Part shown: in pieces, positions 30,837 through 64,000 of the stretch
Layout of the letters: every line of letters starts with the position of its first letter
How positions within the stretch are numbered: position 1 is the first letter of the stretch
Source: Schmidtea polychroa
Taxonomy: Eukaryota
Assembly: GCA_044892525.1 (NCBI GenBank)
Contig: CM097885.1
Coordinates: 10,914,001 to 10,978,000, forward strand
DNA length: 64,000 nucleotides
Direction: 5' to 3'
Notes under the pieces: model-generated
Told to the model about the DNA's origin: nothing
What the model saw: the letters and a program-made list of their open reading frames with translations, nothing else
The model's database searches: none
Position numbers and translations under genes: made by a program

Positions 30837-32339
30837 CTCATATTTGCTGTGTTTTATTTATAGATAAACTTTACAATTTCCCTTTTTTATTTATTTGTCT
30901 CAAATAATTAAAAGAAATATGATTTCCTCGTAAAATTTTAATTTTGCGCGATAAAATTGGAATATTTGAGATATCGATATTGACCAGAATTAATTAATTA
31001 TTTGTAGCCGAGTACTCCTTATACATTTGCAGTGTGATGGATTCGAATCCCTATATCTCTAAATTATTTGAATCAGCATGTTTTGTTTAGTTTAAATTGA
31101 AAATTTTATTGAAATCGAGAATCTTTGATCGAATAAATTATTTACTGCAAAGAAATGCAGTGGTATTATTATTTTATATGAGACTGGTGGTTAAGTGTGT
31201 TCATTTTTTATTTTTGATTATGTTGTTTTTTAAAAATTGACTTATTATTAATTTTTAAGAATTTTTATAGTAGATCGAATTAGCATGCATTGTTTGTTAT
31301 AAATATAAATTTCCATAAACATCGGTCAATGACATTTACTTAAATATTTATTCTATTTCTCATCTACTGACATAAAATGCAATAAACAAGCATTACGTCA
31401 TAATTGATTTAGACCATTTTAGGTTTCGTTTAATATAAAAAAACTAATGAAAGCATAAATTTATTAAACAGTTTAAAAATTTTATCTATTGGTCCTTTTT
31501 TATAGATGGTATGCAAACGTTATCAAAGTTAAAGAACAAAGGAAATTTTCCATTTTCAGTACATAGCAACCACACTAATAGTAGCTGTCATTCTTGCCCT
31601 AACCACTAATCCTAATCATTGAGTCGTAGTAGTGGTAATGGTATGTGAAATTGGGGTAGCGCTACTGTATGACAGTACTTACCATGTGTGACGACTCAGA
31701 AACTAAAAGCATTGGTTGTGCTCAGTAAGTGGGGTCATTGTGTGATTGTAGTGACAAGTGAGGAGTATAAACCAAAACAAATATAACATGATACACAGTA
31801 TTATCTAATATTTGTAGGGGTACTCCGGAGTAGGGGATTTCAAAATTTATAAAGTTGCATAATTCATAAGTATAAGTAAATAATAGTTTCCACTGCCCTT
31901 TCACATTTTTCTTACGTTCGTTATTCAATAAATTAATTTATACTATTCTAATAAAAATCTTTTAAAACAAATTCTATAATACATTTAGATGTGTTTTATT
32001 AAATCAATGATGCTAAATTAATTAGCAAAAACTAGCAGTAAAAACATAGTTTTTAAAACTCTTTCACATTCTCTCAAAATTAAAATTTCAATATTCGAGC
32101 TCAGTGCTATGAAAAGTTTAATATTATGCAAAATCACCAAGTTAAAAAATTACTTTAAAAGCAACATTTTATTAATATTTTGAAAGAAATTTGTAAAACT
32201 TTCAAAAAAGTTAATGAAAGTACCTTCGACCGATCTGAATTTTTGAAAGAATGCATTGTTCTCAACAACGCATCTAGCTGCCAAATTTCAGCTCGATACG
32301 ATCACGGTAAGTGGGTTAATTTGCCGTAGTTAGATTTGC

Positions 32340-34745
32340 GTGGCTCATACAAATATTCAAACATACATACAAAGTTAAGTCATAGTTTTTTCGTAATTCA
32401 CAAATGATCTGCAGACGTCTTCGGACTAGCATCTCAGCTATTCCATGAGTTCGGTTTCTGACAGTATCCGCTAAAACTGAATCTATCCAACTCCTGGCGG
32501 TAGCGGAATCTGTTACTACATCTAAGTTGCTTCTTTCCCATCTGATGGCTAAGGTAATTCCCTTTATCACAGCATCTAAATCTGCAAGGTTTATATGAGC
32601 AAAATCGTTTTTCTTCCTCATCCATGATGCATCTTCGACGATTTTTCCTGATATTTTTAACGCAACTCCTAATGCCAGATTGCTCGCATCGCACCAGACA
32701 ATCGTAGATCCGTCCTTGTTTACGTGCCACTCACCAGTCACGGGATCGCTCTCTTTCAAACGATACATCATTTCGTTAACCATTTTTAACGCGATTTTTC
32801 CAATCGTATCATCTCACTTACTTCCAGAACTGTGTCGTTTTATATAGGTACTTGCTACTCTTAACCATCTAGCAACGGGAAAGTGCCCAACGAGTTGACC
32901 ACAGAGGGAAAATAACTCCCTTCTTGACATAGTTGTAAACTGTGTGGCAAAATGTTTCCACGATGCCACGTACGACCGTTAATACTTGTTTGAAGCTGGA
33001 GACCTAGCACTCTTGTATCATCAAACTCTTCCGGTGGCTTTGTAATTAGCCCGTATGCTGCTAAATGGCCTATTACTTCATTGACGTTTATTCTTGACTG
33101 GTTAACAATAATGTCATCAATATAACTATCCATTGCTTTCCTGATATCTTATCTTAAACTCAGTACCGTCCGTAATATTGTTGACATTATTTTCGGAGCC
33201 ACATTTAAACCAAAACCGAGTCTCATTAGAAAGTATCCGTTCCTTTTGTAACTAACACTTTGGTGCTCCAATAGGTCTTCATCAACATGTATCTGAAGAT
33301 AAGCATTTTTAAGATCAATTGATATAACCTGTTCGCCCATCATTCGCCATCGCCTTAATGATTCACCACATACATCACTTTGTCCAGTATGGCTACTAAC
33401 ATATTTATTTAGTTCTCGAAAATCCATTACTGGACGAACTTTTCCTTTGTTTGCTTGCTCTACTGCCAATAACGGAATTTTTCCATACACGACGTCTTTC
33501 GTTGGAATTAGCCATCCTTCTTGAATCCACCGTTCAACCTCCGTGTCAAACTTGTTCTGCAGCTCTGGACCGATTTTATAATTTGAAATTCTATTCAATA
33601 GTACAGCTGGTTCTGCTTTCCTTTTCCACTTCACGGTCCACTTGCCATCACTGAATGCTGCCGAAAAATCACCATATTCAATTCGCAAATTCTTATTTAA
33701 CTGGTTCTCAGTCACTCACGATACGTTTGCAATACCTGGAAAAGATACAACGGTCTTGTCAATTTTAAGACCTCCCAGCATTCCTATTACGTCCATTCCT
33801 AAAATCATTTCAACATTAAGTGGTAGTTTCATCAACGAAACACTCAATAAACTACGACCAACAATCAGCTGAACTTTCACATCACGAATACACTTGACTA
33901 GTGATCCATCCGCAGTCATGATACTCTCATTCCGTATAAATCGTTTCTTTGCAATTCTGGCTGACACAACTGATTTGGAACATCCCGAGTCGATCAATGC
34001 TTTCACGGACTCCCCATTGATTATGACTGAAATAAACTGCAGCGCCATTATATTCGTGCTAGAGTAGACGCTGGCGCCTGCGCTACTCCATAGGCATTTC
34101 CCGACTCTGCATTCCCGGTACACTCCTTTGCAACGTGGCCCTCTTCTGCACATAGCCAACACTTCTTTCCTTGTTTCTTGAAACATTCTTCTAGATGACC
34201 ATTCTTTCCACAATACGAGCATTTCTTTTGCTTGTCTTATTTTCCACGACAGCCGAACACAGTTCCATACTGTCACAGTTTACTAAGACACGAGACTGTT
34301 TCAAGACCTCAACAAGAGACATCTGCTGAATATTGGCATTGGATCGTAACTGTTGTGACGACACTGCTGGCAAACCCATGATGAATGCGCTTTTAATTAA
34401 GATGTCGTTATCTATCTTGACCAGAGATGCTAAGTTTTTGATATCATTCAAATAGACATCTACTGGCTCATTGCACCACTTTCGTTCACGGAATCGGTCA
34501 TATGCTTGAAACATATCTATCGAATAGACATCGATTAAGGCATGTTCGATCTTCAATGCGTTGCCTTTGTCTTCCGCGATCAAATGCGGATATACTGCAA
34601 AAGCTGGTCCATCTAGATATAAAGTAATTATTGATTCCAACTCCAAGATTTTTTGAATTTTTGCAACTAGCTTAACTTTCTGAATGAACTGTTGAACGTC
34701 ACCTTCTACATTGAAAATAGGTATCATCCTGTCCTTGATATGACC
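32340..34745 (-). mobile_element. Degenerate Ty3/Gypsy internal region (gag-protease-RT-RNase H), truncated before the integrase
   Basis: gag 34191-34727; protease ALIDSGCSKS; RT KVRPVMDFRELN, IDLKNAYLQI, RLGFGLNVAP, YIDDII; RNase H WCDASNLALG and VTDS. Several stops and frameshifts. Confidence 0.9.
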
Positions 34746-35960: not shown

Positions 35961-37405
35961 GTATAAAATGATGATTTCTTGGTAGCAGCATTTTTATTTA
36001 AAACAATAAAATGATAATTTAAGCCTTTTGCTGCAAATAATGTATTTACTGAAAGAATTTTCGACTATAAGATAGTCCTTGTCAATTGATTTTTAAAATG
36101 TTCAATATTTCTTTGGAAATTACAAAACAAACATAAAATATTAAAAACTAAGATAAATGAAATACATTAAATTTGGTCATTTGAAAGATTTTTAATTACT
36201 TTAATAGTTGGGGCACAAAGAATAGTTTGGGAAACATTGCTCTATAGTAAGTGGTCTAACAACATACTACAGAGATAAAAATAGAAATATTGATTAAAAA
36301 GAAAACGAATGAAAAAAATTAAGGAAATTGGAATATTTTGAAGTTATAAAAAAATCTGAATGAAATATTTTTGTGTTTTTCAATTTTAACAGGTGAATAA
36401 ATATTGGTATTGTCATTATTGTATTTATTAAAAAGCTTGACTATGAATCAGTAAATATATCGATGTTTTCTTGATATTTATGAATTTTTGGCACTGCCCT
36501 TATCAAGTGATTTTCTTAAAATTGCTTACGCCATCAATCATTATTGTAATTTGGTTTTAATGTTGTCTAAACAGGATTGTTCAGATGCATCAATGCTTAT
36601 ATGGCTTTATGGTCGAAAGACATAATACGTTAGTCACTGAGCAAAGAGTGGATATCACTATTAGAACCGATTATTCCATAAACCGGTTCATATACTTTTA
36701 AAAATTGACAAAAAATAGTTCTCATCGTCCATATCATTAACGATACCGAAAGGTTTTACCACCTAAAAAATTTTAAAAACGTGTAAATTAAATATGATAA
36801 AAGAAATAAATATATGATATAAATATATGATAATAAAAAAAATATGATATAAGAAATTCTAAATATTATCAGAAATATCCCGCCGTTTCCCAGTGCTTAG
36901 GAGAATCACTCCTATATAACATTCATAGCACTGGGCAGAAACACTTTCTCTTTCAAAGATTTTTCAACGTGCAAGAATAAAAATGAATATATATGAAATT
37001 ATCAAAACCGCCGTTTCCCAGTGCTTAGCAGAATTACTGCTATACAACATTCCTAGCACTGGGAAGAAATCGGAGGACCTAAAGAATAATACTACTAAAA
37101 CTCCGGAGACAAATAATTTAACTGATAATACAAATTCAATTAATTATAATTTTAACAGGAATAGCGCCCAATCTCTTTCTACTAGAACAAGGATGAATAC
37201 GCACCCGCATGAACTCTATGCCAAAGGTATTGGGAAAATGACTCCCAATGCCCCATTTCTTATCCAGGATCCCAATCTGAGAACATCACCGAGCCAAAGT
37301 ACCAATGGAACAATGCCGAATACACTTAATGATGACTATGCCAAGGATATTGGGAGTCATTCTCCAATCCTCAATTCATGGAGATCCAAATACAGCCGTG
37401 CATAT

Positions 37406-40257
37406 TAGGGTGGAGTGAAAATGACCGAAAAAAAATTTTTTGACTTAGTAGACTTTGGATAGTTATAAAAACTTGCTATGAGGTCCAATGAAGTACTCTG
37501 TAAAGAAAAACAATAATTTAAATAATGTCTTGAGGTTCCACAACCAACTTTAAAATGTAACCATTGATAAGAAAACGATAATGTATTTGCTATTATTGAC
37601 ATATTATTGAAGTCATTGATGGCATTTAAATAATATTTTCATTACTTTTAATAGCAAAATATTTGCCACCCATACACTATGGATTTTAAATGCCGCTGGT
37701 TTTCCTTTTTAGAGTTGCAATGGCTGTAACCAGAAAGAAAGTGTCTTGTGTCATCTTTGGTGGTCCATCCGAGATGCCCGACAATCAACTACCGACTTAT
37801 GCAGATGTTATGAAATTCTACAACCTGACAAAGCAGAGACTGAAATGCGAATTGAACAATAAAGATCCTTCACATCGCAACGTGGCAGAAACAGTGTCAA
37901 TGAAAGTAGAACAAATATGAGACAAAGCTTCCATACCACATGTAAGCCACCGCCGTGTTCATGAAATGTTGAACGTGTACCACAAGACGTTCATGAAATT
38001 GCTGAAGCCATATAAATCTAGGAAGGACTCAGAACCATACAGAGAGAAAATATCGCAGTTTAAAGATGAATCGATTAAACTCTTTGACATTTGCTCCTGC
38101 AAGTGCTCTTGTATGTCTCAGTGTCACTGTGAGAAGTCAAGAAAGATACCCACAATTGAACGTGACTTTCTAGAAGATCAGCGGGGTTCACGCTGTATGA
38201 TCATAGCTGGAGTTGATGAGTTTGAATCCAGTATATTACAAAAGCGGTATATCCGTAAAGAGTCGACACAGAGGCAGATGTGTACCAAATCTGCCATTGA
38301 TGACATCGGTGATAAACAGTCGGATGTCTGTGACGAGATTTCTGGAATGGAAGAGGAAATGGATACCGGCGATGATGACTCTGATGACGATTGTATAAGC
38401 CAAATTAAACAACAGCGAAAATTGAATGACAAGCAGATGAGAGTTAAGCTACCGTCGTTGGCTTTAGCGTGTGATCGACATGGCGTATCCGACAGGGCGG
38501 CAGCAGGAATCGCCAGTGCTGTTCTTCAAGATGTTGGAATAATCCACGAACATGATGTTTCTAAAGTTATTGACAGAAGTAAAGTGCGTCGAGAACGTTG
38601 TAATAAGCGTGGCGCATTATGTGCCGAAGTCAGTAACACAATCACTGGGTTATATTTTGACGGCAGAAAAGACAATACAATGACCCAAATTAAAGAATGC
38701 GATGGTAAATTTCATCGGAAAATAATAACTGAAGAACATATATCGATTATAGCCGAACCAGGAGCTACATATTTCGGTCACATTACACCAACTGCAGGGT
38801 CAAGCAAAGTTATCACGGCTGAGTTGATTGCATATTTGAATAAAAGAAATGTTGACACGAGTGGCATAAAAGCAATAGTTTGTGATGGGACAGCCACTAA
38901 TACGGGCATTCGAGGAGGCATCATTCGATTACTTGAAGTGACGTTACACAGACCGCTACAGTGGTTCGTATGTCAGTTGCATGCAAACGAATTACCGTTA
39001 AGACATTTGTTTCAGTATCTCGATGGACCTACCAATGGTCCAAAAGGATTTTCTGGTCCCATTGGAAAGTCATTGTTGAATTGTGAGAAGCTTCCCATCG
39101 TTGACTACATGCCGATAAACTGTGTTCTACCGTCAAGTGCAAGTTCCGACGATTTAAGTACAGATCAGAAATACCTGTTCGATTTGTGTACTACTGTAAG
39201 TGTTGGTATTTGTCCTGTCGACCATTCACTTCGCAATCCTGGTCTTATCAACCATTCGAGATGGTTAACCACGGCTAATCGCATACTACGTCTGTATGTT
39301 GCCACAAGAAGCCCGTCGGATGAACTAAAGACGCTTGCTACCTTCATCGTAACAGTTTATGCACCTGCATGGTTTGAAATAAAGAATACCCCTTCGTGTA
39401 AAGACGGCGCTCGACATGTCCACAGTACGATACTGAAATCACGCTACCTCACAGACGAGCTGAAGAAAGTTGTTGACCCGGTAATTCAACGCAACGCATT
39501 CTTTAGTCATCCAGAAAATCTGTTGCTTGCGATGCTTACCGATGAAAGATCAGATATACGCGAGTTAGCTCTGCGACGCATACTGAAATCCAGAAAGCAG
39601 AAACGTACGACTTCAGTTAGATCTTTCTGCGTGCCAGTAATCAACTTTGAGGCTACTAGCTACATAGACATGATCGATTGGCAGAAAACTCCGATCACAG
39701 AGCCTCCAATCGTAGTGGACATTGACGAAGATACTTTGTTAACCATGATCCGGGAAGAAGAAACGCCAAGACTGGATTTCGCCCGCTATCCTTGTCACAC
39801 CCAGGCAGTAGAGAGACATATCAAGCTAGTGACAGAAGCATCCGAAATGGTGTGTGGTCCAGAAAAACGCGACGGATTCATTAGAGCACGCTTGGAATCG
39901 AGATTGAAAATGCCAAAACTGGACACCAAAGCCCAACATCATTTGTAGTTATAAAAACATGTTAGACAGTTTGCATGTGGTTTCCCTTCACAGATATGGT
40001 TCTTATTACTTGTAATGTTATGTACAGACTGTTAAAAAGTTAAACCATAACATAAATATGTTACTTATAAAAAAATGTTTTTTTTAAAGATTATTGCTTT
40101 TTTATCGAAATATGCCTATACTTTAGGTCAATTGTGGAACCTCAAGATATGCTTTAAATTGTCTAATTGTTTGCCACATTACTAATTGCATGTGTTACCA
40201 AGTTTTTATAGCTATCCAAACAAGATATTAAGAAAAAAAAATTTTCACTCCACCCTA
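37406..40257 (+). mobile_element. hAT superfamily (hATm-type) DNA transposon, complete
   Basis: 17-bp TIRs TAGGGTGGAGTGAAAAT / ATTTTCACTCCACCCTA; perfect 8-bp TSD GTGCATAT (37398-37405 and 40258-40265). Confidence 0.95.
37720..39948 (+). pseudogene. hATm transposase with a single in-frame TGA at 37918-37920
   Basis: ORFs 37690-37920 and 37966-39948 share a frame (QI*DKASIP, probably W). Motifs YFDGRKD, CDGT, CQLH, HSRWLT, PCHTQAVERHIK. Confidence 0.85.
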
Positions 40258-43200
40258 GTGCATATGTATTCAACCAAAGATATTGGGAGAATGACTCCCA
40301 ATACATCACCTGCAGACCCGGATGACTGGAAGACTTACTGCCCTGCTAGGAAAATCTATCATCTTTATAATAACGGTAATTATAATCAGAATTTATACAA
40401 TAATTTAAATAAATTAAATTTTAATAATAATAACTCAAACTTGAAATTAAATGATAATTTAAATAATATTCTATATAATCATTTAAATAAATTAAATTTT
40501 AATAATAATAAATCAAACTGAACCTAAATGATAATTTAAATAATAATTTATATAATAACAAAAATTTATATAACGACTTAAATAAATTAAATGCTAACAA
40601 TAACCTTAAAATCACAAATACTAATTACTCTAATAATAAATATTCTAATTATAATGATCATTTAAATTTCAATTCTAATTTATATTATTGTATTTCTCAA
40701 CATGATAAAAAACATATAGACAATTTTAATGCATTCTTTGATATTATTTATGAATTAATTATTTATAATTTAATAAATGAAAAAACTAATGAAACCAAAG
40801 CATCTAATTTAAAAAGAGATTTAATTAATTTAATTAATACTAATATTGATGCTATTTCAACAAAGAATTTTTCTTTGTTTAAATATCATCAATATATTAA
40901 CACTTTCTCTTTACGGCCGAATCGCTCCTCACAAATCTGTATCTTTCAATGACAATATTAATCATACTGAATACTTTACAGCCTCTCATAAAAACTCTAA
41001 TCCTGAATATCTCACTAACATTGGTGAAATTGGAACCAATTTTTTTAGAGAAGTTAAAAAACAATTTCTTCATCTTAACTCTGCAAACCCACAAATGCTT
41101 ACCTCCACCTATATCTCTTTCTTTAAGGACCTTAATAACAATTACCGCAAACTGATTAATATCCTTGAGCCGACCAATAGCGACAAACCACCCTTTGATC
41201 CTAAGCTTATACCCTGCCACAATAATAAGCAATTCATTAATAACTATAATACCATCCTAATAAACCTTAATAAATACCTTTTTAAAGATATTCATATTCA
41301 ATTAAAAAATAACCATAAAAATGTAAACTCTTTTATTATTAGAAATCTTTTTTATATACTTTATATTAATTATCGACAATTGACCTCGGTATTATTTGAG
41401 AGGGCGATTCCCGCAGATGATGTAGGAATAGAAAACTCACCTACAACTGACGTAAATACTCCTGATTCATGTGAAACCAATAATATTAATGCTGAAAGAT
41501 CTACATCACCTGCAGGCATTGCACTCTCTGATTTTTTGCCCACTCTCCCAGAGAAAATAATATCAGCTCTAACTAATATCAGTAATATGGCTAATAATAT
41601 ATATGCCGCTCTTATAGACACTATGAACCCTGACTATCCCACAAATAAATCCCTAGTATCAAAGAAAAATAATAACAGCTCAAACCACCCCAGCAAACCT
41701 TACACCAACCCTAACCATCTATACTTTAATCAAAGTACCTCACGTAGACCACACTTCTCTAAGCCTATTCCAAACCCAACTGACCCTAAAAATATCCACC
41801 CCAATAAAAAATTAATTAAAAAAGTCAAGAGATCTTCTCATTATAATAAACTAATTAATTACTCCTCTCCTACCTCCCCGGATGACACCTCTTCTAACTC
41901 TTATTCGTCGGGAGAAACCTCCAACCCTGAAACCTTTCCATCCTCTTCGAACTACTCAGCAACCAGCATTGACATGTCCCACTATAGTTGCTATTTTGAC
42001 GATACTATTGACTCCCCTTTATCAGAATGTGAGAATAATATTAATAAATCTTACAAACCTGAGGAATACCAAAGTGATCTTTTTAACTCGGACTGTGACG
42101 ACGTCTTAATTTCCAGCAGTGACTCTGATCAATGCTATACTAATGAACCTCCTACTTCAAATGTCCCTCTCTTGGCTCCTCCTACTATCAAGCTCTTACC
42201 TCCTTCGCCTGATAAATCTAACCTACATAATAATACCCTACCTACTGATTCAATTGAAGAATCAAAAATATATCCCTCAACTAGACCTTCACCACTAGAC
42301 GACTCTGCAACCATACCCCTTGTTAGGCAAGATAGGAATACTAACAACATCTCTTCCTCTGAAAACATTAACCGTGATAGATCTTCTCTTATTCCTAAAA
42401 GACTTATAAGTAGTGAGGAATCTATGCACCCCAGCACCCCCACCCTCAAAAAAACAGCGCTATTGACCCATATTTTCCACATTTATATGCTTTTTTACCC
42501 CATATTCTTCACTTTTTTTAACTTTTAAACTTTGTCCCCTATTGCCATTAACCCTTAATTTCTTCCCTTAAAAGTAAAAAAGTTCGGAATAGATGTATTT
42601 ATAGATTAGTAATTCCGAGAAAAGGTAACGGGGTGCATAGATTCCTCACTACTTGGTCTTAAGGATTTAATGTTATAAGGATTTAATGTTATAAGAATAT
42701 CAGATTACCTAATTCATAATGATCTAGGTCGCCTGATCACCTTAAGGTTTTGAAAGTTTTAAAAATAAAAAATGTTATGAAATAGTAAAACTGCTCTGAG
42801 AGGACAGTGGTTTTTTTTTTTTTTTTTCACTGTCCTCTCAACAGTTTTTTTTTTGATCCGGATCATTTTTTTTTATTCAACCTCTTTCGTTTATCAAATC
42901 TCTTCCAATATACAAGCTGGCCAGACTCATACATCAGAATCAATTCGATAATAGCAGCACACCTTATTATTCGCTTCTCGCTCGAATACGATTTCATCGG
43001 CGTTTTAAGTGTGCTGCTCGAAAGTACAAATGAATTCGAAAGCGAATCCGAAAGAGGTCCGAAAACAACTGAGAAATAAATGTGCACATTACCGGAATCG
43101 ATCCGGGGGTGTTCGAAAGACAGGTGGCGATAATTACCGGTTCGCCACCATCACCCGTTTCAATATTTTTTTTTTCATATTTATGTTTAAAAAATAATTA

Positions 43201-43354
43201 ATTAATAAAAAAATAAAATAAAATAAAATAAATAAAATAAAATATACAAGTACTTTATAAATATAAGATACCCACACTATTTTCAATATTATTTTCAAAT
43301 TTTTAATATTATTTTATGTTGAAAAAAAACTAACCTCAGATGTGATTTGAACCA

Positions 43355-43651
43355 CTATCCATTTGAACCACTGTGCCAGTCTATTCCCACTGCGCCATCA
43401 AGGTTTGAATTTTTGTCATTTTTTAGACTATAAATAATCGATTCAAGTTCTTTAACTCTTTCCTGTAATTGTTTCATTTTCTTCAATCTTATATCAGCAA
43501 CATCTACAACCTTCATATAAAAATGTCGATACTTTTCATTATCTACCATCAACTCTTTGATGTATTCTAATGGTTCTTCTTCTCTTCTTTTCATTCTCTT
43601 ATGTTTAACTTCATTCAATTCATTTCTCATTCTTTCTTTTAACTCATCCAT
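43355..43651 (-). CDS. Small coiled-coil hypothetical protein (element A)
   Basis: 98-aa ATG ORF with AAAAATG context, E/K-rich heptads. Confidence 0.55.
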   Translation of the reverse strand: MDELKERMRNELNEVKHKRMKRREEEPLEYIKELMVDNEKYRHFYMKVVDVADIRLKKMKQLQERVKELESIIYSLKNDKNSNLDGAVGIDWHSGSNG

Positions 43652-43816
43652 TTTTATAAATATTTTTTTTATTGGATATATTAATTTTTGGTAGTTAAAA
43701 CGTTTTTGATCTTAAATTTCCAAGAGTTGCCGTTGACCAATCTCCTTAAAAATTTGTACAAGTACTAAATCGAGTATGCTGATCAATATTTCGTTAAAAA
43801 AAATTTTGAAAAAAAA

Positions 43817-43889
43817 TGACCGAAATGGGATTTGAACCCATTGGTATTGGCAATGCAGTCGAGTGCTATTACCACTAAGCTATTAGAGC
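43817..43889 (-). ncRNA. tRNA-like Pol III gene, copy 1 (tRNA-Cys-like, anticodon arm unpaired)
   Basis: 73 nt; A box TAGCTTAGTGG; perfect T arm ATGGG-TTCAAAT-CCCAT; CT-GCA at the anticodon position; followed directly by T8. Confidence 0.65.
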
Positions 43890-44057
43890 TATACTCAATA
43901 TAAAATAAGTTGTTAATGTGTGACTATTTATTGATGAAATTAATAATTAATTATTCATTTTCTCGACAACTACCACTCAGATCCATCTGAAAATTTAAAT
44001 ATATACTAAAATCAGTACGCTGAATCAGATTCCGTTGAAAAAAATATTGATAAAAAT

Positions 44058-44131
44058 TGACCAAAATCGAAAATTGAACCCGGTACTCCCGGTGATAAAA
44101 TTGAAGCCTATTCCCACTCCGCTATAATGGC
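44058..44131 (-). ncRNA. tRNA-like Pol III gene, copy 2 (diverged tandem duplicate)
   Basis: 74 nt; A box TAGCGGAGTGG; B-box-like GGTTCAATT; ends GGTCA then ATTTTT; flanks are homologous to copy 1 (~240-bp unit). Confidence 0.5.
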
Positions 44132-44187
44132 TTACATAATATATTTAATTAATCCTACTTTGTGTGTGTAAATTTTAATATATAAAA

Positions 44188-45480
44188 ATGAATAACATAA
44201 ATCTTAAAATTCAAGAAAAAAATAAATTAAATCTTGATTATAATAAAGAATTTACTCATGAAATTAAAAAAAATGATGTACTTAAAATCTCCCCAACTTC
44301 AGGATCTATTGCAAACTTAAATCGTAGGGGTGATATAGTTTTTCAATCTCTTCAAACATCAAACCCTATAGATATTTGTAATGCCAAATTATATTATAAA
44401 ATCGAATTAGAAATTGAAGCAAACAAAGATATAACCCTAGAAAATAATTTCTTTCCAAATTTATTCTCCAACATGAGATTAAAACTAGGATCATCAGAAA
44501 TTGAAACTGTTTTGCATCCGGGAGTATATTCTACAATGTTAAATTTTATTTTGACTGGTTGTGATTATAAAAACGAATATGGTGAATTAACAGGTTGGAT
44601 TCCTGATGTTAATAAAGGGGATTTAGATAAAGATGGTTTAGATGTAAACCATGGTTACCATAAAAGAGCTGAACTTTATAAATCTAAAAAATTTGAAGGT
44701 TATTTTGAATTAAAACACTTGTTTGGATTCCTTCAAAACTATAATCGTATACTTCATAATGTTTTTATAGAATTCATCTGTAATAGAGTAGAAGATGATA
44801 AAAGATTGTTCTATGGAGCTGTAGATACAAAAGCTAAATTAAAATTATCAACACTTGAATTACATATACCTGAATGGACATTAAACCCACATTCTGAGAT
44901 TAAACTCCTTGAAAGATTAAATTCCAACAAGTCTATAAATGTAAATTATTTAAATAGAATCTGTAGTGAATTTAGTATGACAGAGAGTTCAACATATTCT
45001 ATAAAGGTAGCAAATTTAGCATACCGACCAAGATATATCTTGATTGGATTCAAAGAAGTAGATTCATCTTTCCAAAAAAATAACAACTTGTTTATTCAAA
45101 AGATTGGAGTTGATAATTTAAAAACAATCCAAATTCAATTAAATAGTTCTTATTATCCAATAAATAGAATGGAATTTAATATTGAAAATAATGAAAACAT
45201 ATTCCCATATCTAAATTATATTGAAACATGTTATGATTTCAAAGTTGAACCGCAATTAAGTTTAGAAGATTTCAAAAATTTATATTCTATATTTTGTATA
45301 AATGTTTCAGACCAAGATGATCGCCTAGCCATAAATAATGTTGATGTTACACTTCATGTAACAAAGGATTCTAATTTTAAAGCTAAAGTATATACATTAA
45401 TATTAGAAGAAAAGAAAATAGAGATGAAATTATGTGGTGGAAAGATTTCAATTATTGAAAATGTTAGGGGAGATTCTTGA
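44188..45480 (+). CDS. Major capsid protein (double jelly-roll, hexon-like) of element A
   Basis: 430 aa; NLNRRGDIVF, LENNFFPNLFSNMRLKLGSSEIE, RPRYILIGF, LNSSYYP, IFCINVS resemble Polinton MCP; context. Confidence 0.8.
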   Translation: MNNINLKIQEKNKLNLDYNKEFTHEIKKNDVLKISPTSGSIANLNRRGDIVFQSLQTSNPIDICNAKLYYKIELEIEANKDITLENNFFPNLFSNMRLKLGSSEIETVLHPGVYSTMLNFILTGCDYKNEYGELTGWIPDVNKGDLDKDGLDVNHGYHKRAELYKSKKFEGYFELKHLFGFLQNYNRILHNVFIEFICNRVEDDKRLFYGAVDTKAKLKLSTLELHIPEWTLNPHSEIKLLERLNSNKSINVNYLNRICSEFSMTESSTYSIKVANLAYRPRYILIGFKEVDSSFQKNNNLFIQKIGVDNLKTIQIQLNSSYYPINRMEFNIENNENIFPYLNYIETCYDFKVEPQLSLEDFKNLYSIFCINVSDQDDRLAINNVDVTLHVTKDSNFKAKVYTLILEEKKIEMKLCGGKISIIENVRGDS

Positions 45481-52287: not shown

Positions 52288-52842
52288 TCAGTTATGGTTG
52301 AAAGCCAACCTATGAATCATTAATTTATGATCTTTAAATTCTTTATCACTTAGACCTTTTATATATTCAGGATCAGTATTAAAATATTTAAGTTCTAAAC
52401 ATATAGGATTAAAAACTTGAGAATATAAAGGTTTCTCGATTTCTCTCTCGGGATAAATAATTTCAACATTATAAATATCAAGATTAGTAATCTTTGTATC
52501 ATATAACTTATTCAACTTTTCTAGATTTTTTATTATAGGGATTAAATTATTTCCAATAGGTAGAGTTGTCTTTAAGTCACTTAGTATGAATCTCTTATCA
52601 TCATAATTTGATAATAATATTTTTTGAGATTCTATCAAGTGAATATCATGGTTTTCACTTTTAAGTTGATGTATTTCATCAATTTTATCTTTATGATTTG
52701 GATTCAATGTATCTATATAATCTTGATGAGAAAGATTCTTTGCAACCACTCTCTGTATTCCTTTACATCTGTTATCCTTTAAATTAGTAATATTTTTTAT
52801 AATTTCAAAAATGTTATTTTCTTGATTTTTAGTTTCCATCAT
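52288..52842 (-). CDS. Stand-alone paralogue of the pPolB C-terminal (thumb + tail) region
   Basis: CKGIQR..HQDY..L..LKSENH..KILLSNYDDKRFILSDLKTTLPIG closely matches the adjacent pPolB end; own ATG, intact frame. Confidence 0.75.
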   Translation of the reverse strand: MMETKNQENNIFEIIKNITNLKDNRCKGIQRVVAKNLSHQDYIDTLNPNHKDKIDEIHQLKSENHDIHLIESQKILLSNYDDKRFILSDLKTTLPIGNNLIPIIKNLEKLNKLYDTKITNLDIYNVEIIYPEREIEKPLYSQVFNPICLELKYFNTDPEYIKGLSDKEFKDHKLMIHRLAFNHN

Positions 52843-52866: not shown

Positions 52867-53338
52867 TTAGACCAGTCGTAATTGATTTATAATTATTTCT
52901 GCAGTAATGCTTTTTAACATTAATTTATGTGATTTAAAGTCTTCTGGTGTTAGTCCTTGGATATATTCAGGATCAGTATTAAAATATTTAAGTTCTATAG
53001 GTTTTATATTTTGAACTTGATTATATAAAGGTTTAGGAATTAATATTTCAGGATATTGGATTTCTACTTTAGCAAGTTGAAGGTCTGTAATCTCTAGGTT
53101 ATAAATTTCATTTATTTTATCAAGATTTTTTATTATAGGGATTAAATCATTTCCAATAGGTAATGTTGTCTTCAAGTCAGAAAGTATAAATCTTTTATCA
53201 TCATAATTTGTTATAGCAATCTTGTTACACTCTTCAAGATATATATTATGTTTCTCTGATTTAAGATGATGGGTTTTAGCAATTTTATTTTTATAATTTA
53301 TATTTAATGAATCTTTATACTCTTGATGTGTGAAGGTT
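52867..53338 (-). pseudogene. polB: 3' end of element A protein-primed DNA polymerase B, cut by element B
   Basis: Open frame from the junction: TFTHQEYKDSL..LKSEKHNIYL..KIAITNYDDKRFILSDLKTTLPIG..*. Confidence 0.8.
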
Positions 53339-54165
53339 AGTAGTAAGATGTGTCACCTCCAGGACATGTCACCTCCAGGACACATATATATAAGTAGGTC
53401 AAGTTAAAATTAAGTAGATCAAGTTAAAATTATGTAGGTCACGACTATATAGGTATTAAAATATGTAGGTCAAGTTACTTTAAATATATGTTACCTCCAG
53501 GACACTATATAAATAAATAAGTCAAATTAAGTAGGTCACGACTATATAGTTTATAAAAAATATGTAGATCAAGTTATTTTTAACATGTATCCCTATAATA
53601 TATACATCATTCAAAAGATATTTGAGAGTAGAGTACAATGATCATACCTTCAAAGGTGTATGGTGAATCCCTAACCTTCAAAAGGTGCAAAACCCTCGAA
53701 TTTTTTCAAACTCTATAATACATGTCATTCAAAAGGTAATTGAGATGTGAGTATGATGGTCATACAATCAAAGGTGTATGGTGAGTCCTTCACCTTCAAA
53801 GGGTCAAAAAATTTCGAATTTTTTCAAACTTTATAATATATATACATCATTCAAAAGGTATTTGAGAGTAGAGTGTGATGGTCAAACCTTCAAAGATGTA
53901 TGGTGAGTCCTTACCCTCAAGTGTCAAAAACTTTGATTTTTATTCAAACTGTAAATTGATCATTTCAACAAATCTTTCAATCCCCAAAATAAATTTCCCA
54001 ACTCAAAAATTTCCCAAATTTTAAAAATTCCCAAAAACAATTTTCCCAACTCAAATTTTTTCAAAAATTAAAAAGTCCCAAAAATGAAATTCCCCAAATT
54101 TCCCAACTCAAAATTTTTCAAATTTTAAAAAGTTTTCAAAACTATTTTCCCAAATTTTCCAACTA
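53339..54165. repeat. Left terminal region of B: 16-bp tandem, AAGTAGGTCAAGTTA repeats, three ~120-bp tandem units (53600-53950), TTTCCCAA repeats
   Basis: Direct reading, e.g. CATTCAAAAG.TA.TTGAGA....G.TCA.AC..TCAAAG.TGTATGGTGA.TCC three times. Confidence 0.85.
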
Positions 54166-54434
54166 AATAGTAAAAGAATGTTTTACAATTTTTTTTTTCC
54201 TCGAATACATCAAACCAAAAATTTAACAAGGTTCGTCACACAAATCTAATTTTGAAATCAAACAAATGAATTTAATAAAAATTAAAATCATCGACATACA
54301 CAACAGCCGTTCGCCCGCCCGCCCGCCGCCCGCCGCCGCCCGCCCCGAAGGGGCTGGCGCGGTAGTTTGTAAATTTGGTTTAGTTTGAATATTATTTTGA
54401 GTATTAATAACAAAGGTAAAGAAATAAATATTTA

Positions 54435-54992
54435 TTAAATGTATATAGTATGATACTCATTAATATACATTGAACATGCTTTACATTTGCGAACATTTGA
54501 ATCATGGCATTTAGAACATACAATTACATGTCCGCAAGGTAAAAACAAAACCGATACTTGATTTTCTTTACAAATGTAACAAGTTAAATACATTTTCCTA
54601 CCATCATTGAGTTTTTTCCTTAGCTTATTTTCAATCAATTCGGATTTCGATATCCATTCATAAATCAATCTACTACTATATCCTGGTTCCAGCCTTAAAT
54701 CCATACAATTCCAAAAGCATTCATTCAATGAATCATTATCTACTATTGCTTTGTCTAAATGCATCAAATAAATCGATAACTTCAAAATGCATTTATTGTA
54801 ATTAAATAAATCAATCAAATATCCAATGGAGGAATGTTTGAAAATTTCTAAAATTTTTATGGTTTCCTTTTCAGTGAGAGTATCATAATTGTTCATAAAA
54901 TCTTCAACGGTGCAGTTTAAAAACTTGAATGATCTCGTGGTCATCAGTAATTTCTTAATAAATTTATGAAAATACTTATATTCTGCACACAT
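54435..54992 (-). CDS. RING-finger (IAP-type C3HC4) putative E3 ubiquitin ligase
   Basis: C-terminal CYICKENQVSVLFLPCGHVIVCSKC....KCKAC; no BIR motif visible. Confidence 0.85.
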   Translation of the reverse strand: MCAEYKYFHKFIKKLLMTTRSFKFLNCTVEDFMNNYDTLTEKETIKILEIFKHSSIGYLIDLFNYNKCILKLSIYLMHLDKAIVDNDSLNECFWNCMDLRLEPGYSSRLIYEWISKSELIENKLRKKLNDGRKMYLTCYICKENQVSVLFLPCGHVIVCSKCHDSNVRKCKACSMYINEYHTIYI

Positions 54993-55355
54993 TTATAAGA
55001 GATACATTAAAACAACTCATTTATTAAACAAGAAAATAATTTAAAATCAATAATGGTAATTTTAAGGATTATCTTCGATAGATTTTATTGAATAATGGTT
55101 CATTAAAAAGGTCTTGAAGAGCTCTATCCAATGGTTATATATTTGAAGATATAATGTTTGTGCACAATATAGTAAGTATTATTATTTTTATTATTATTTT
55201 TATTAACAAACTACATTCTAATAAAATACTTTTACACATCAAATTATTAAAAAAAAAAAAAAAAAAAAGAAAACCGATAATTATAAAACGAAAAAGAGAC
55301 TTTACAATAATTTCTATTTTACAAAAATTCAAACAAGTCCGATCACAGAATTAAA

Positions 55356-60189
<4,834 letters not shown>

Positions 60190-60353
60190 TTTAAAATTGT
60201 AATAAAATAATTATGATGAAATTTGTATTACAATTGTTTATAACGTGATAATATGCCTTTGTTAATCATGCACGGAGCATGCACCGTTCATGACGGACTT
60301 TGTTATTATTGTAATAATATAAAACATAATAATAATTATAAAAATAATAAAAC

Positions 60354-60415
<62 letters not shown>

Positions 60416-60466
60416 ACATAATAATAATTATAAAATAATAAAAACACATTTTTATAAAAACATTTA

Positions 60467-60843
60467 TTATTTAATAGACATAAGCCATCCTAAACAATGT
60501 TGTCCGCACGTACGAGTTAAAGGGTGTTGATACATTGTTTTATTATATACAATAGGTTTGCCCATTGTTTGTAGTTTCGAAACCAATAAAGCAGGATAAT
60601 AGAAACCCATAGGATCGAATACATGTATCTTATCTGGTTTCATATAGATTGCAATCCAATGCTCTCCGCCGAGATGAGATGAATGGGTATTGACGATTAT
60701 GGCTTGATTATTTTTCAAAAATGGTATTTTATCGAGAGGAAAAACTCCTAAAAATTCATTTCCTAATATTTGTTTTCCAATTCGATTAACCTGAACAGAA
60801 CTATTTTAATAAATTAAACAGTATAAAAAACAACTTACTCCAT
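60467..60843 (-). CDS. Adenain-like protease of element B, 2 exons (60843-60839, 60800-60467), 112 aa
   Basis: ATGGA|GTAAGT...AAATAG|TTCT gives MDSVQV..FLGVFPLD..IVNT..GEHWIA..FDPMG..YQ....TCGQHC. Confidence 0.85.
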
Positions 60844-60870
60844 GACAACTTTCTGTATTTCTGTATACAT

Positions 60871-62094
60871 TTATACCAGAACCGTTCTATTTGCAGTAAT
60901 TTGAACTTCATTTTCAAATACTCCATATATTATAACATGCACAGGTTCTGTAATAGCTTTTGCAAACTTTATATCTAATCGTAAATTTCCATTTTGAGGT
61001 AATTGACTCTGATTCAAATCAAAATCTGGGGCCAAAACAAATGTAAAGAATGGATATTTGGTTTTGAATTCTTCAAGAGTTATGCCGCAATTCAAATTTT
61101 TATCTAAATATCCCATATTTCTAACAATACTCTGCATATATGTAGCACAGTAATTGTCACTATCGAAATCTTGAGTATATGTTTCTCGATAATCAGTATT
61201 TTTCGACAAAGTTAGAGATGTAACACCAAAGGTTTTGAAAATTGAGCTTGAGGCACTATATGAACCATTATATTGTGCTTCACCTTGAAATGTTACCAGA
61301 ATAAAGTTTGGCATTCTTCTATCTCCAAATATTTGTTCCTTATAGAAGGAAGAAGCACCTTTGGCTATTGCAAATGAAACAATTTCTTTTGTTTTCAGAG
61401 GATAGATTGCATGCTTAGAATTAAGACCCAACTGATGACCTGCTAATACCGACGGATCAACTCGAACTCTTCTTACTAGTAATTTTGCATCAACTAATTG
61501 ACATATTGGTTGACCAGCACCACTAGTTAATGATAAAGAAGAATCGGTTCTTTTCAGTCTAATGTGTACATTGACTCCTGGAAGTAAATATTTTGGTTGA
61601 TCTATAAAATCGAGTTGTAATGATGAACACATGGTGAAAATCTTTGAGCCTTTAATCCATTTTTTCCGTTCGTCATCAGTTGCTGCATAACCCATAGGAG
61701 TAAGACATGTATTTTTGGTGTCGGTATTATAATTTAAAATAGTTTCTATTATCGCCTTGTGGATATATGTATTGTTGCCACCTTCAATCTTGATATTATT
61801 AAATCCAAGAATAGCATCTTTAAAAAGTGTATGAAACAAAAAATTATTAGGTATTGTAGCATCAGCATCACCCAAAGCCTTTTTATCTGTATCTATAACC
61901 TTGATTTGAACAATCAATAAAGTATCATTCAAATCTAAATATTCTGTTTGAGAACCATTGATGTAAAATTCTACATCATTTCTACTATCGGTAATTGAAT
62001 TCATAGGAAAAACTTCCTCAAATGCCCCAAATTCTATTACAGCCTGGGGCGATGGTCTATCAAATATACATAATTCAGATTTACCACAAATCAT
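60871..62094 (-). CDS. Major capsid protein of element B
   Basis: KSELCIFDRPSPQ (SELxxF..P.Q), YLDLNDT, NNFLFHTLF, QPKYLLPGV; 407 aa. Confidence 0.9.
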   Translation of the reverse strand: MICGKSELCIFDRPSPQAVIEFGAFEEVFPMNSITDSRNDVEFYINGSQTEYLDLNDTLLIVQIKVIDTDKKALGDADATIPNNFLFHTLFKDAILGFNNIKIEGGNNTYIHKAIIETILNYNTDTKNTCLTPMGYAATDDERKKWIKGSKIFTMCSSLQLDFIDQPKYLLPGVNVHIRLKRTDSSLSLTSGAGQPICQLVDAKLLVRRVRVDPSVLAGHQLGLNSKHAIYPLKTKEIVSFAIAKGASSFYKEQIFGDRRMPNFILVTFQGEAQYNGSYSASSSIFKTFGVTSLTLSKNTDYRETYTQDFDSDNYCATYMQSIVRNMGYLDKNLNCGITLEEFKTKYPFFTFVLAPDFDLNQSQLPQNGNLRLDIKFAKAITEPVHVIIYGVFENEVQITANRTVLV

Positions 62095-62453
62095 TTTGCA
62101 AATATAGTTCCATGTCCTTTCATTCGTTTGTTTATACGTGATATTCCATGTCTTTTACGTTTTGGAGCTGGACCTGGAGGCGTATCTTTTTGAAACATAC
62201 CTGCAACCCCTGGTAAAACTTTCCCTAATTCAGCTAAAGCATTTGTTTTTAGAGATGGTAATATTTTCTGTTCATTCATAATAACATCTTTTGCAGTTTT
62301 CATACCAAAACTACCAATACGTTTAAGAATAGGCAATGCAAATCTACCAATTGTTCTCAACCATCCCGATCCGTACTGTTTACCAATAAAATATGGTAAT
62401 TCACCGCCAGATTGGCTATCACTATACATACTAATAATATCAGAATTAGCCAT
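62091..62453 (-). CDS. Basic core-like protein (QxGxG family)
   Basis: QSGGELPYFIGKQYGSGW..IGRFALPILK; K/R-rich C-terminus; located between penton and MCP. Confidence 0.65.
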   Translation of the reverse strand: MANSDIISMYSDSQSGGELPYFIGKQYGSGWLRTIGRFALPILKRIGSFGMKTAKDVIMNEQKILPSLKTNALAELGKVLPGVAGMFQKDTPPGPAPKRKRHGISRINKRMKGHGTIFAK

Positions 62454-63489
62454 CTACTTTACGAAAATGTAATGTCAAATGAGTTTTTGAACCTTTTGGA
62501 AAGTTTATAAGTTTTCCACTATCATCACGAATATTTATTTCTATATTGTTTATACATGAACTTGCTATTGGTAAATACATGGGATTATCGATATTTATAT
62601 TGACAACTTCATCATGTTCATATTTTCCAATCCATACCGATTTCAAAAGAGGAACACTGGAATCACCAACAATTATGGGCTCGATAATGTTAGTATATAT
62701 GAACATTTGTTGATGATGTTCTAGTATTCTTGGTTTGCGTATACCAGTCGATTTTTCTCTATATATTTGCTTATCTAATCCAAGTGAATTTGCCAAATTT
62801 TTATCAAATGTAACTTCGCAAATATCCTCATTCAAACTGAAGGTAAACATCAAATCTTTCACAATTTCCAAATTTTTAAATATGTGTGAACAATTGAACT
62901 TTAAATATTTAAGTAATACATCAAGTTTATCAAAATATAATTCATCAGCAAAGATGAATGATTCTTCAACTTCATCGTTATACGACACAGATATTTTGAT
63001 TTCTTCTTTCACTATACTGTTTGCTTCAAATAGATTAAAACGTAATAAATACTCGGTCTCCATAACAATATTTTTCAGCTTATTGCAACCCATTCGTTTG
63101 GCATCTTCAATAGTTTCGAATGTTATTGTAAATGGTTTAAAATCACAACTGATATTTAATCCATTCTTGTAAAATATATAGCAATGCGAATCTAATATTT
63201 GGTTCAGAATATGATATGTTTTATCATAATTACTAATAATAAAGATACCGCTACATGTTTTCACAATATTCCTTTTGAAATCAATCTTACATTGACTATA
63301 AAATGGGAATGTGTTGTACACGAATGTAAAATCTTGCAGTGCAACTTCCCAGTCACCATTTAAAGAAATCGGATTCTGGAGATTGACCATAAATTTACTG
63401 GCTTGATTGTCTGGATGAATTAATGGGCAACTATTGCTCGGTAAAATAGTATAAAAATTCACTTTACTAGGTCCTTTGCTGATATCCAT
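62446..63489 (-). CDS. Minor capsid (penton-like) protein of element B
   Basis: FYTILPSNS...HPDN..S.F...L...L.GDWEVAL, FIYTNIIEP.IVGD..VPLL, LTLHFRK. Start placed at MDISKG. Confidence 0.85.
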   Translation of the reverse strand: MDISKGPSKVNFYTILPSNSCPLIHPDNQASKFMVNLQNPISLNGDWEVALQDFTFVYNTFPFYSQCKIDFKRNIVKTCSGIFIISNYDKTYHILNQILDSHCYIFYKNGLNISCDFKPFTITFETIEDAKRMGCNKLKNIVMETEYLLRFNLFEANSIVKEEIKISVSYNDEVEESFIFADELYFDKLDVLLKYLKFNCSHIFKNLEIVKDLMFTFSLNEDICEVTFDKNLANSLGLDKQIYREKSTGIRKPRILEHHQQMFIYTNIIEPIIVGDSSVPLLKSVWIGKYEHDEVVNINIDNPMYLPIASSCINNIEINIRDDSGKLINFPKGSKTHLTLHFRKVDG

Positions 63490-64000
63490 GACGGGTTTTG
63501 ATAACCATGCCATTTGACATAGTATTGTTTATCCTTGCCGACCTTTTTAGTTTTCAATAATTTTTGAATTCTAAATACCTTTGGAGGAGGAATGACTTGT
63601 AATTCCTGCTCATAAAATTTCCCTTGTACAATATTATTATCACTGTCTTTGATGACATACATTACAGGATTCTGTTTAGTATTTATTTTTGAAATTACAA
63701 AGACTTCATCACTCCAATTTGTATCAAAATTTTTAATAAATGGTGATGCACTAATTTTACTAATTCTAACATGATCACCGACTTTATATTTAGGTTTTGC
63801 AATTTTTACAGATTTCTAAGAATAGAATGTTTTTGATGTAATATCAACCGGTCTTAATCCATTCAGTCCTCGGTGTGATGAATGATTATAACTTGTTATT
63901 ATTTTCGGTAAAGCATTTACCCATTTTTTATTACCTTGATACACGAACAATTTCTTTAATCTATCTCTCAATGTTCGATTAAATCTTTCAACATGGGCAG
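63459..64000 (-). pseudogene. 3' part of integrase with C-terminal chromodomain; in-frame TAG at 63816-63818
   Basis: AHVERFNRTLR, YNHS.H, KYKVGDHVRI, NWSDEVF, FYEQELQ, then chromodomain FRIQKLL..YYVKWHGY..SW. Confidence 0.85.

Follow-up and report, generated by a model that had tools for sequence, protein, structure and literature searches.

tRNA-like units shared with the host rDNA spacer and a candidate folded Pol III RNA upstream of the capsid gene of a Polinton family in Schmidtea polychroa

Polintons are regarded as close kin of adenoviruses. According to the accessible part of PMC4378190, adenoviral VA RNAs are about 160 nt long and occupy Dicer or other dsRNA-binding proteins, and the TMERs of murine gammaherpesvirus are tRNA-like Pol III units, several of which are clustered at the genome end. 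BocaSR of Bocavirus, an ssDNA virus, is a Pol III RNA of 140 nt from a non-coding region adjoining the terminal hairpin (PMC11194592, accessible part). tRNA genes occur in Polinton-like and MELD viruses and are thought to be host-derived (PMC12220804 and PMC8502044, accessible parts), and in fission yeast tDNA barriers require both TFIIIC and Pol III (PMC2040200, accessible part). In a planarian, piRNA silencing of polintons has been described (PMC8532177, accessible part). A literature search, which did not cover most subscription journals, found no report of Polintons with a regulatory RNA made by Pol III, and none of arrays of tRNA-like units in the rDNA spacer of an animal; the rDNA spacer is not mentioned in the accessible part of PMC6884822.

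The window analysed here is a stretch of 64,000 nucleotides of Schmidtea polychroa (GCA_044892525.1, contig CM097885.1, positions 10,914,001 to 10,978,000). A sequence-only reading of it had proposed that two tRNA-length units next to the capsid gene of a Polinton are analogues of VA RNAs. The features concerned, in window coordinates, are the following.

42409..42782, no strand assigned: left terminal inverted repeat of the family A Polinton, starting AGTAGT, with an internal palindrome at 42409-42653
42787..43157, minus strand: U4, an A/B-box-headed unit of the element's own with a predicted RNA of ~370 nt (A box 43147, B box 43104), overlooked in the sequence-only reading
43323..43404, minus strand: U3, tRNA-like but degenerate (A box 43397, B box 43353, T8), also overlooked
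43355..43651, minus strand: accessory ORF of 98 codons from the ORF list, function unassigned, running into U3 and present in 34/52 copies
43693..44176, no strand assigned: piece of 484 bases shared with the host rDNA intergenic spacer, holding U1 and U2, with AAAATT microhomology at the site
43809..43889, minus strand: U2 (copy 1 of the earlier reading), tRNA-like; both boxes are intact, the T arm is perfect and a T8 follows; tRNA-length part 43889-43817
44052..44131, minus strand: U1 (copy 2 of the earlier reading), a more decayed tRNA-like unit; tRNA-length part 44131-44058, predicted start 57 bp from the capsid ATG
44188..45480, plus strand: major capsid protein gene (double jelly roll; ATG 44188; PF21738, E 2.5e-26)

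Comparison among copies showed that family A copies terminate at 42409, and at the right end the identical 374 bp recurs in inverted orientation in six of the seven copies followed. The ends are those of a Polinton/Maverick, with AG-rich starts of the terminal inverted repeats and a 6-bp target duplication, seen for the copies L023/L037 and L028/L039. The genes are also typical: Pfam searches identified the double-jelly-roll capsid (PF21738), an integrase (PF00665), which in family A carries a phospholipase-A2-like domain, and an A32 ATPase (PF04665). We take the family to have a protein-primed PolB as well, from motifs in long ORFs of other copies; the PolB fragment in the window, left where a nested element interrupts the gene at 53338, gave no Pfam hit, and the 98-codon ORF gave no Pfam match.

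Several other elements were observed in and around this locus. A second Polinton family is nested in the polymerase gene at 53338 (window 53339-64000 and L031:1-6600), with a 1.2-kb terminal repeat, a PolB-like ORF of 1300 aa and a RING-finger ORF. An ORF of 184 aa (52288-52842, minus strand) duplicates the C-terminal region of the polymerase, with 75% DNA identity to 52918-53217, and is retained in other copies. A 2.9-kb element at 37402-40269, probably a DNA transposon, has an ORF of 660 aa without a Pfam hit and is 99% identical to a copy in L041. Broken ORFs at 32316-34727 (minus strand) presumably belong to an LTR retroelement, given their gag-, protease- and reverse-transcriptase-like features. 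The same U3-U4-capsid module stands between terminal repeats of several kinds, unrelated to one another and all enclosing a palindrome (window 42409-42782; L002, L022, L026, L041, L131 and L197), a pattern of end swapping.

Family A is very abundant in the AT-rich genome of 781 Mb. Copy numbers given here are counts of exact 22-mer or junction matches; a capsid 22-mer present in 52/52 sampled copies has 2,022 exact matches genome-wide. A first set of 60 loci, picked by identity to the window, was too similar for conservation tests, so 60 loci found with outgroup capsid queries were used instead; removal of 8 duplicates left 52 distinct copies, a sample that leans to diverged copies.

Both of the units flagged earlier are present; they lie on the minus strand and are read divergently from the capsid gene. 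Their A boxes lie at 44124 (U1) and 43882 (U2), with B boxes 44 bp further and T runs behind. The distance of 242 bp between the A boxes agrees with the claim of a duplicated unit of about 240 bp, but the two units align over only ~92 bases at the 3′ side, with ~72% identity. Likewise, the promoter boxes, T arm and terminator said to be kept in both copies are indeed kept in U2, whereas in U1 the B box is degenerate, the T arm is broken and there are three internal T4 runs. The view that neither is a functional tRNA was borne out: ARAGORN called no tRNA gene across the whole window, and U2 lacks a full cloverleaf, its acceptor and anticodon stems being broken. A pseudo or low tRNA score had been expected; U2 scored 32.4 bits with the Rfam tRNA model, just above the gathering score of 29, and U1 had no Rfam match. 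U3 and U4, including the U4 head, also lacked a tRNA match in Rfam. The 5′ half of U2 resembles the host tRNA-Cys(GCA), a resemblance that is not significant outside the boxes (z = 1.1 only), and U2 is likely tRNA-Cys-derived, to judge from its sequence. The host tRNA-Cys(GCA) genes form a tandem array (L150-L155; C1:269.25 Mb) with a period of 281 bp, and 976 pattern matches occur genome-wide.

In place of the two units described earlier, four A/B-box units (U1-U4) were found, all on the same strand within 42783-44187 (1.4 kb) and with a box spacing of 43-44 bp. In 2000 shuffles this interval held 0.0085 units on average and never more than 1, by a pattern composed after the units had been seen; this stricter test replaced an earlier one with Markov shuffles and a looser pattern (mean 0.53). 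Read from sequence alone, U2, U3 and U4 have a type 2 Pol III promoter with a U-run terminator, and U1 has a degenerate one. A pattern scan of the nested second Polinton family was negative for A/B units, as was one of 33 metagenome relatives, which total 77.7 kb, are mostly short with few reaching the element end, and so are weak evidence of absence. Because neither set contained such a unit, the module may be confined to family A. ARAGORN found no tRNA in 11 of the metagenome loci, Rfam searches of 17 gave one sub-threshold hairpin match, and in a viral contig collection neither a capsid relative nor the U4 motif was found. Upstream of its capsid gene, one metagenome relative has a strong hairpin (L158:2810-2889), with a sub-threshold Rfam hit (E 7e-7) and without A/B boxes by pattern.

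Whether the flagged pair occurs only in the element had been posed as a check; it also matches the host rDNA spacer. Ten stretches over five rDNA regions, in which the rRNA genes were placed, were compared with the window, and 43693-44176 matched the spacer in 5/5, with a BLAST identity of 93-95% including gaps and 9-10 substitutions per 368 bases. The spacer holds an array longer than that of the Polinton, about 3 to 4.2 kb past the 28S end and with all units antisense to the rRNA: U2 forms a 243-bp subrepeat in two or three tandem copies and is accompanied by one U1 and a further, distinct A/B unit. In L080:7296-8462 (C115), and also in L082, L084, L087 and L088, four to five decayed tRNA-like A/B units with a spacing of ~240 bp were observed. 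On contig C115 the spacer-type junction is present in 11/11 rDNA units. From its sequence, the spacer array is a candidate Pol III/TFIIIC boundary in the rDNA.

Some Polinton copies have a clean empty site, and AAAATT flanks the insert on both sides as well as the spacer's own junction. These sequences make a transfer from spacer to Polinton very probable. Traffic in the opposite direction, with the spacer array descending from an ancient, U3-like Polinton end, spread by concerted evolution and later retaken by the element, seems improbable to us. It would account for the resemblance of U3 to the spacer U1 and U2 outside the boxes (z 2.7-3.5, a level reached by 1-3 of 500 shuffles) and for the duplication period of U3, which is similar at ~240 bp; U3 is also closer to these units than to the extra spacer unit or to the host tRNA-Cys. 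Yet the likeness is weak and all the units are tRNA-derived, no other element-A DNA, U4 included, was matched in the five spacers, and the further spacer unit has no counterpart in the Polinton copies examined. Since U3 is weakly akin to U1 and U2, an older exchange, in one direction or the other, is possible.

Genome-wide, a U1 22-mer has 1,974 exact matches; in exact form, the Polinton junction occurs 1,380 times and the spacer-type junction 701 times. About two thirds of the capsid-bearing copies (~1,380 of 2,022) thus have the insert, compared with 17/52 sampled copies that carry it and 35/52 that lack it; the share is lower in the sample, which leans to diverged copies. Four spacer-type junctions on chromosome arms were followed, of which three belong to Polintons that have, distal to U4, a longer piece of the spacer; the fourth belongs to an rDNA fragment. 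Copies of this kind (L194, L197-L199) are family A Polintons with a different terminal hairpin and the longer piece between U4 and the end. The three long-piece copies share the Polinton alleles of the insert, and because both Polinton sites share four alleles untypical of today's spacers, a single capture with later relocation is indicated. Polinton-specific alleles of the insert lie at 43867, 43893 and 43933. From these sequences it is likely that family A captured the piece once, that one subfamily has a longer form of it close to the end, and that the form next to the capsid gene is trimmed.

SINEs have tRNA-derived heads with A and B boxes. That the pair might be copies of a dispersed host SINE was named in the sequence-only reading as one outcome that would overturn it, and this was not what was found: the 1,974 U1 matches are covered by the 1,380 Polinton and 701 spacer-type junctions, and all eight U1 matches that were examined because the exact Polinton junction was missing there proved to lie in DNA of the Polinton family. 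A SINE origin is largely refuted by these counts, and we regard it as most improbable.

Among the 17 carriers, diversity was 0.016 in the insert, 0.031 in the capsid gene, 0.029 in U4 and 0.088 in U3; since the insert varies less than the other three, it is either younger or more constrained. The boxes of U1 and U2 had been expected to be better conserved than their flanks. The result showed 0.005-0.006 substitutions per cell in the boxes and 0.004-0.010 in the spacer between them, so that no selection on U1 and U2 is visible, in a comparison that says little because the insert is too young. Such a result would be expected if the insert were a neutral passenger that rode along with a lineage expanding for other reasons, with U4 stems that act in single-stranded DNA while the ends replicate, or that form the 3′ terminus of a transcript made by Pol II. 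The absence of the insert from 35 sampled copies would also agree with this explanation, which on all the evidence, including that from U3 and U4 below, we consider rather unlikely.

The sharing with the host also bears on the proposal that U1 and U2 are element-encoded RNAs of ~75 nt acting as VA-like RNAi decoys. The intact boxes and T8 terminator of U2 suit this proposal, and the presence of the insert in some two thirds of the capsid-bearing copies and at two family sites could reflect a benefit. Against it, the host has the same units in hundreds of rDNA spacers, so that the pair is not virus-encoded in the manner of a VA RNA; U1 has its internal T4 runs and degenerate B box; the long stems are absent; and no VA family was matched in Rfam, by U1 and U2 or by U4. 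Unlike VA RNAs, the two units are host-shared, 73-74 nt long and barely folded (z 0.06 and -2.7). With the absence from most sampled copies, and with boxes no better kept than the flanks, an outcome that the sequence-only reading had itself named as refuting, the identification of U1 and U2 as VA RNA analogues falls, and a decoy role for them is improbable. They differ as well from the tRNA genes of Polinton-like and MELD viruses, which are called by ARAGORN or Infernal and read as codon supply (PMC12220804 and PMC8502044, accessible parts), in having lost the cloverleaf and in arriving with the rDNA spacer. The broader idea that the Polinton may encode a Pol III RNA fails for U1 and U2 but survives for their neighbour U4. 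U1 and U2 are thus not VA RNAs by membership, and U4 may, from its modelled fold, work like one.

The other alternative in the sequence-only reading, insulators bound by TFIIIC, fits the position of the pair, 57 bp from the capsid ATG. U3 was present in 49/52 copies, often duplicated at ~230-250 bp, and its B box was invariant in 49/49 copies although the body varies: alternative alleles per site amounted to 0.18 in the boxes and 0.87 in the body. U3 has no stable fold (z 0.14). An A/B unit is located upstream of the capsid ATG in 49/52 copies, the nearest A box being mostly 45, 64 or ~300 bp away. tDNA barriers and extra-TFIIIC sites offer a likeness, in that B boxes are kept beside a promoter with no need for a tRNA product; those barriers are in yeasts and at host loci, whereas here the setting is a mobile element known from its sequence only. 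The captured U1 and U2, together with U3, would be landing sites for TFIIIC and Pol III beside the capsid start, not decoy RNAs. TFIIIC, TFIIIB and Pol III bound at the short units would hold the AT-rich stretch before the capsid gene open against silencing, and the B boxes of the short units would be kept because of that binding; the captured piece would add two more landing sites, or nothing. By analogy with the barriers, TFIIIC binding has, in our estimate, an even chance of keeping the capsid promoter region open in this way. The invariant B box of U3 within a drifting body speaks against a purely neutral cluster, as does the finding of four same-strand units with 43-44 bp box spacing, far above chance.

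U4 would be the gene with a product: its predicted fold combines long stems and A-rich linkers, and a 3′ hairpin precedes the T run. Between 43157 and the T run at 42790 its minus strand folds with -130.7 kcal/mol (z -8.5); on the same coordinates z was -9.1 for the box strand and -5.5 for the opposite strand. As DNA it folds too (z -7.3), and the terminal repeat is nearly as strong (z -4.8 to -6.8), as would suit stems that act in DNA on a neutral passenger. U4 was present in 48/52 copies and has 2,533 exact 22-mer matches, some as inverted pairs ~14 kb apart; one of seven right ends examined carries it, and the best 30 U4 loci are all Polinton ends, beyond which a diverged host counterpart may exist. 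No Rfam family was matched at the gathering score, and 20 sub-threshold matches are regarded as chance.

Conservation of U4 was assessed in 37 rows, namely the window and 36 of 47 extractable copies, 11 having been omitted for large deletions or as near-duplicates. The B box core was retained in 34/37 rows. In helices 4, 6, 7 and 9 of the window structure (54 pairs), 8/8 recurrent change types keep the pairing, mostly via G-U; two pairs in these four long helices are altered on both sides, a number not above that of shuffles (433/500 as high), and five peripheral pairs of the single-sequence structure are disrupted by recurrent changes. On the RNAalifold structure the contrast was 10/10 against 6/21 (p 0.0002) and is partly circular. 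The mere two double changes would be in keeping with neutrality, whereas the recurrent changes that favour G-U pairs on the box strand count against it.

An internal T4 at 43065, 92 bases into U4, could terminate the RNA early. Among the contigs listed, none spans this T4 by 31 bases on each side. The contigs come from six runs, four presumed to be RNA and two DNA-like, and contigs of U1 and U2 could stem from rDNA. In assembled contigs of the presumed RNA runs, summed depth was highest on the U4 bin in X1 (4,722, against ≤685 elsewhere in the element) and X2 (8,037, against ≤1,165), while depth in X4 and X5 stayed within about twofold across the element, a measure that cannot rank genes or give strand, ends or level. 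Contig joints 43682-44171 and 43425-44181 were considered as splicing and rejected, as they match genomic empty-site variants. Judging from the boxes and terminator, U4 is probably transcribed by Pol III through the internal T4.

U4 resembles adenoviral VA RNAI and VA RNAII in having internal A and B boxes, long stems and a U-run end within a double-jelly-roll linear dsDNA element; it differs in its length of ~370 nt, its A-rich linkers and its position at the element end (PMC4378190, accessible part). The TMERs resemble the cluster as a whole, and the predicted structure of U4, an A/B-box tRNA-type head followed by hairpins, resembles theirs; in contrast to TMERs, the U4 head is without a tRNA score, the stems are longer and nested, and part of the cluster is host rDNA spacer. 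From its modelled fold, U4 is the likelier VA- or TMER-like candidate compared with U1 and U2. Pol III would produce from it a ~370-nt RNA with long imperfect stems, which as a double-stranded decoy or Dicer substrate would occupy Dicer or other dsRNA-binding proteins. PKR is, to our knowledge, vertebrate-specific. A decoy role for U4 against RNA silencing, suggested by this model, is tentative and somewhat doubtful. Alternatively, U4 would aid replication at the nearby element end, for which BocaSR, from beside a terminal hairpin, offers a model (PMC11194592, accessible part).

Taken together, the explanation we prefer, and believe to be reasonably probable as a whole, is that the captured spacer piece and U3 serve as landing sites and that U4 gives a folded Pol III RNA. 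A fuller reading, which is speculative and rather unlikely, joins them: the element's own abundant ~370-nt Pol III RNA would dampen host RNA silencing as an independent counterpart of the VA RNAs, the capsid promoter would be shielded by tRNA-like boundary units derived from a spacer whose array guards the rRNA genes, and gain of the units would have helped one lineage to reach two thirds of ~2,000 copies.

The flagged pair itself is the more ordinary part of the locus, host spacer DNA carried by an element. The spacer piece is a probable case of a Pol III module that a transposon acquired from rDNA. It also reveals a decayed tRNA-like array, antisense to the rRNA, within an animal rDNA spacer, of which no earlier description was found. 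If a family of some 2,000 young copies does make a folded Pol III RNA, this would give a testable account of how the family copes with silencing, and U4 as a VA-type RNA would, if true, mean a second origin of the VA-type strategy.
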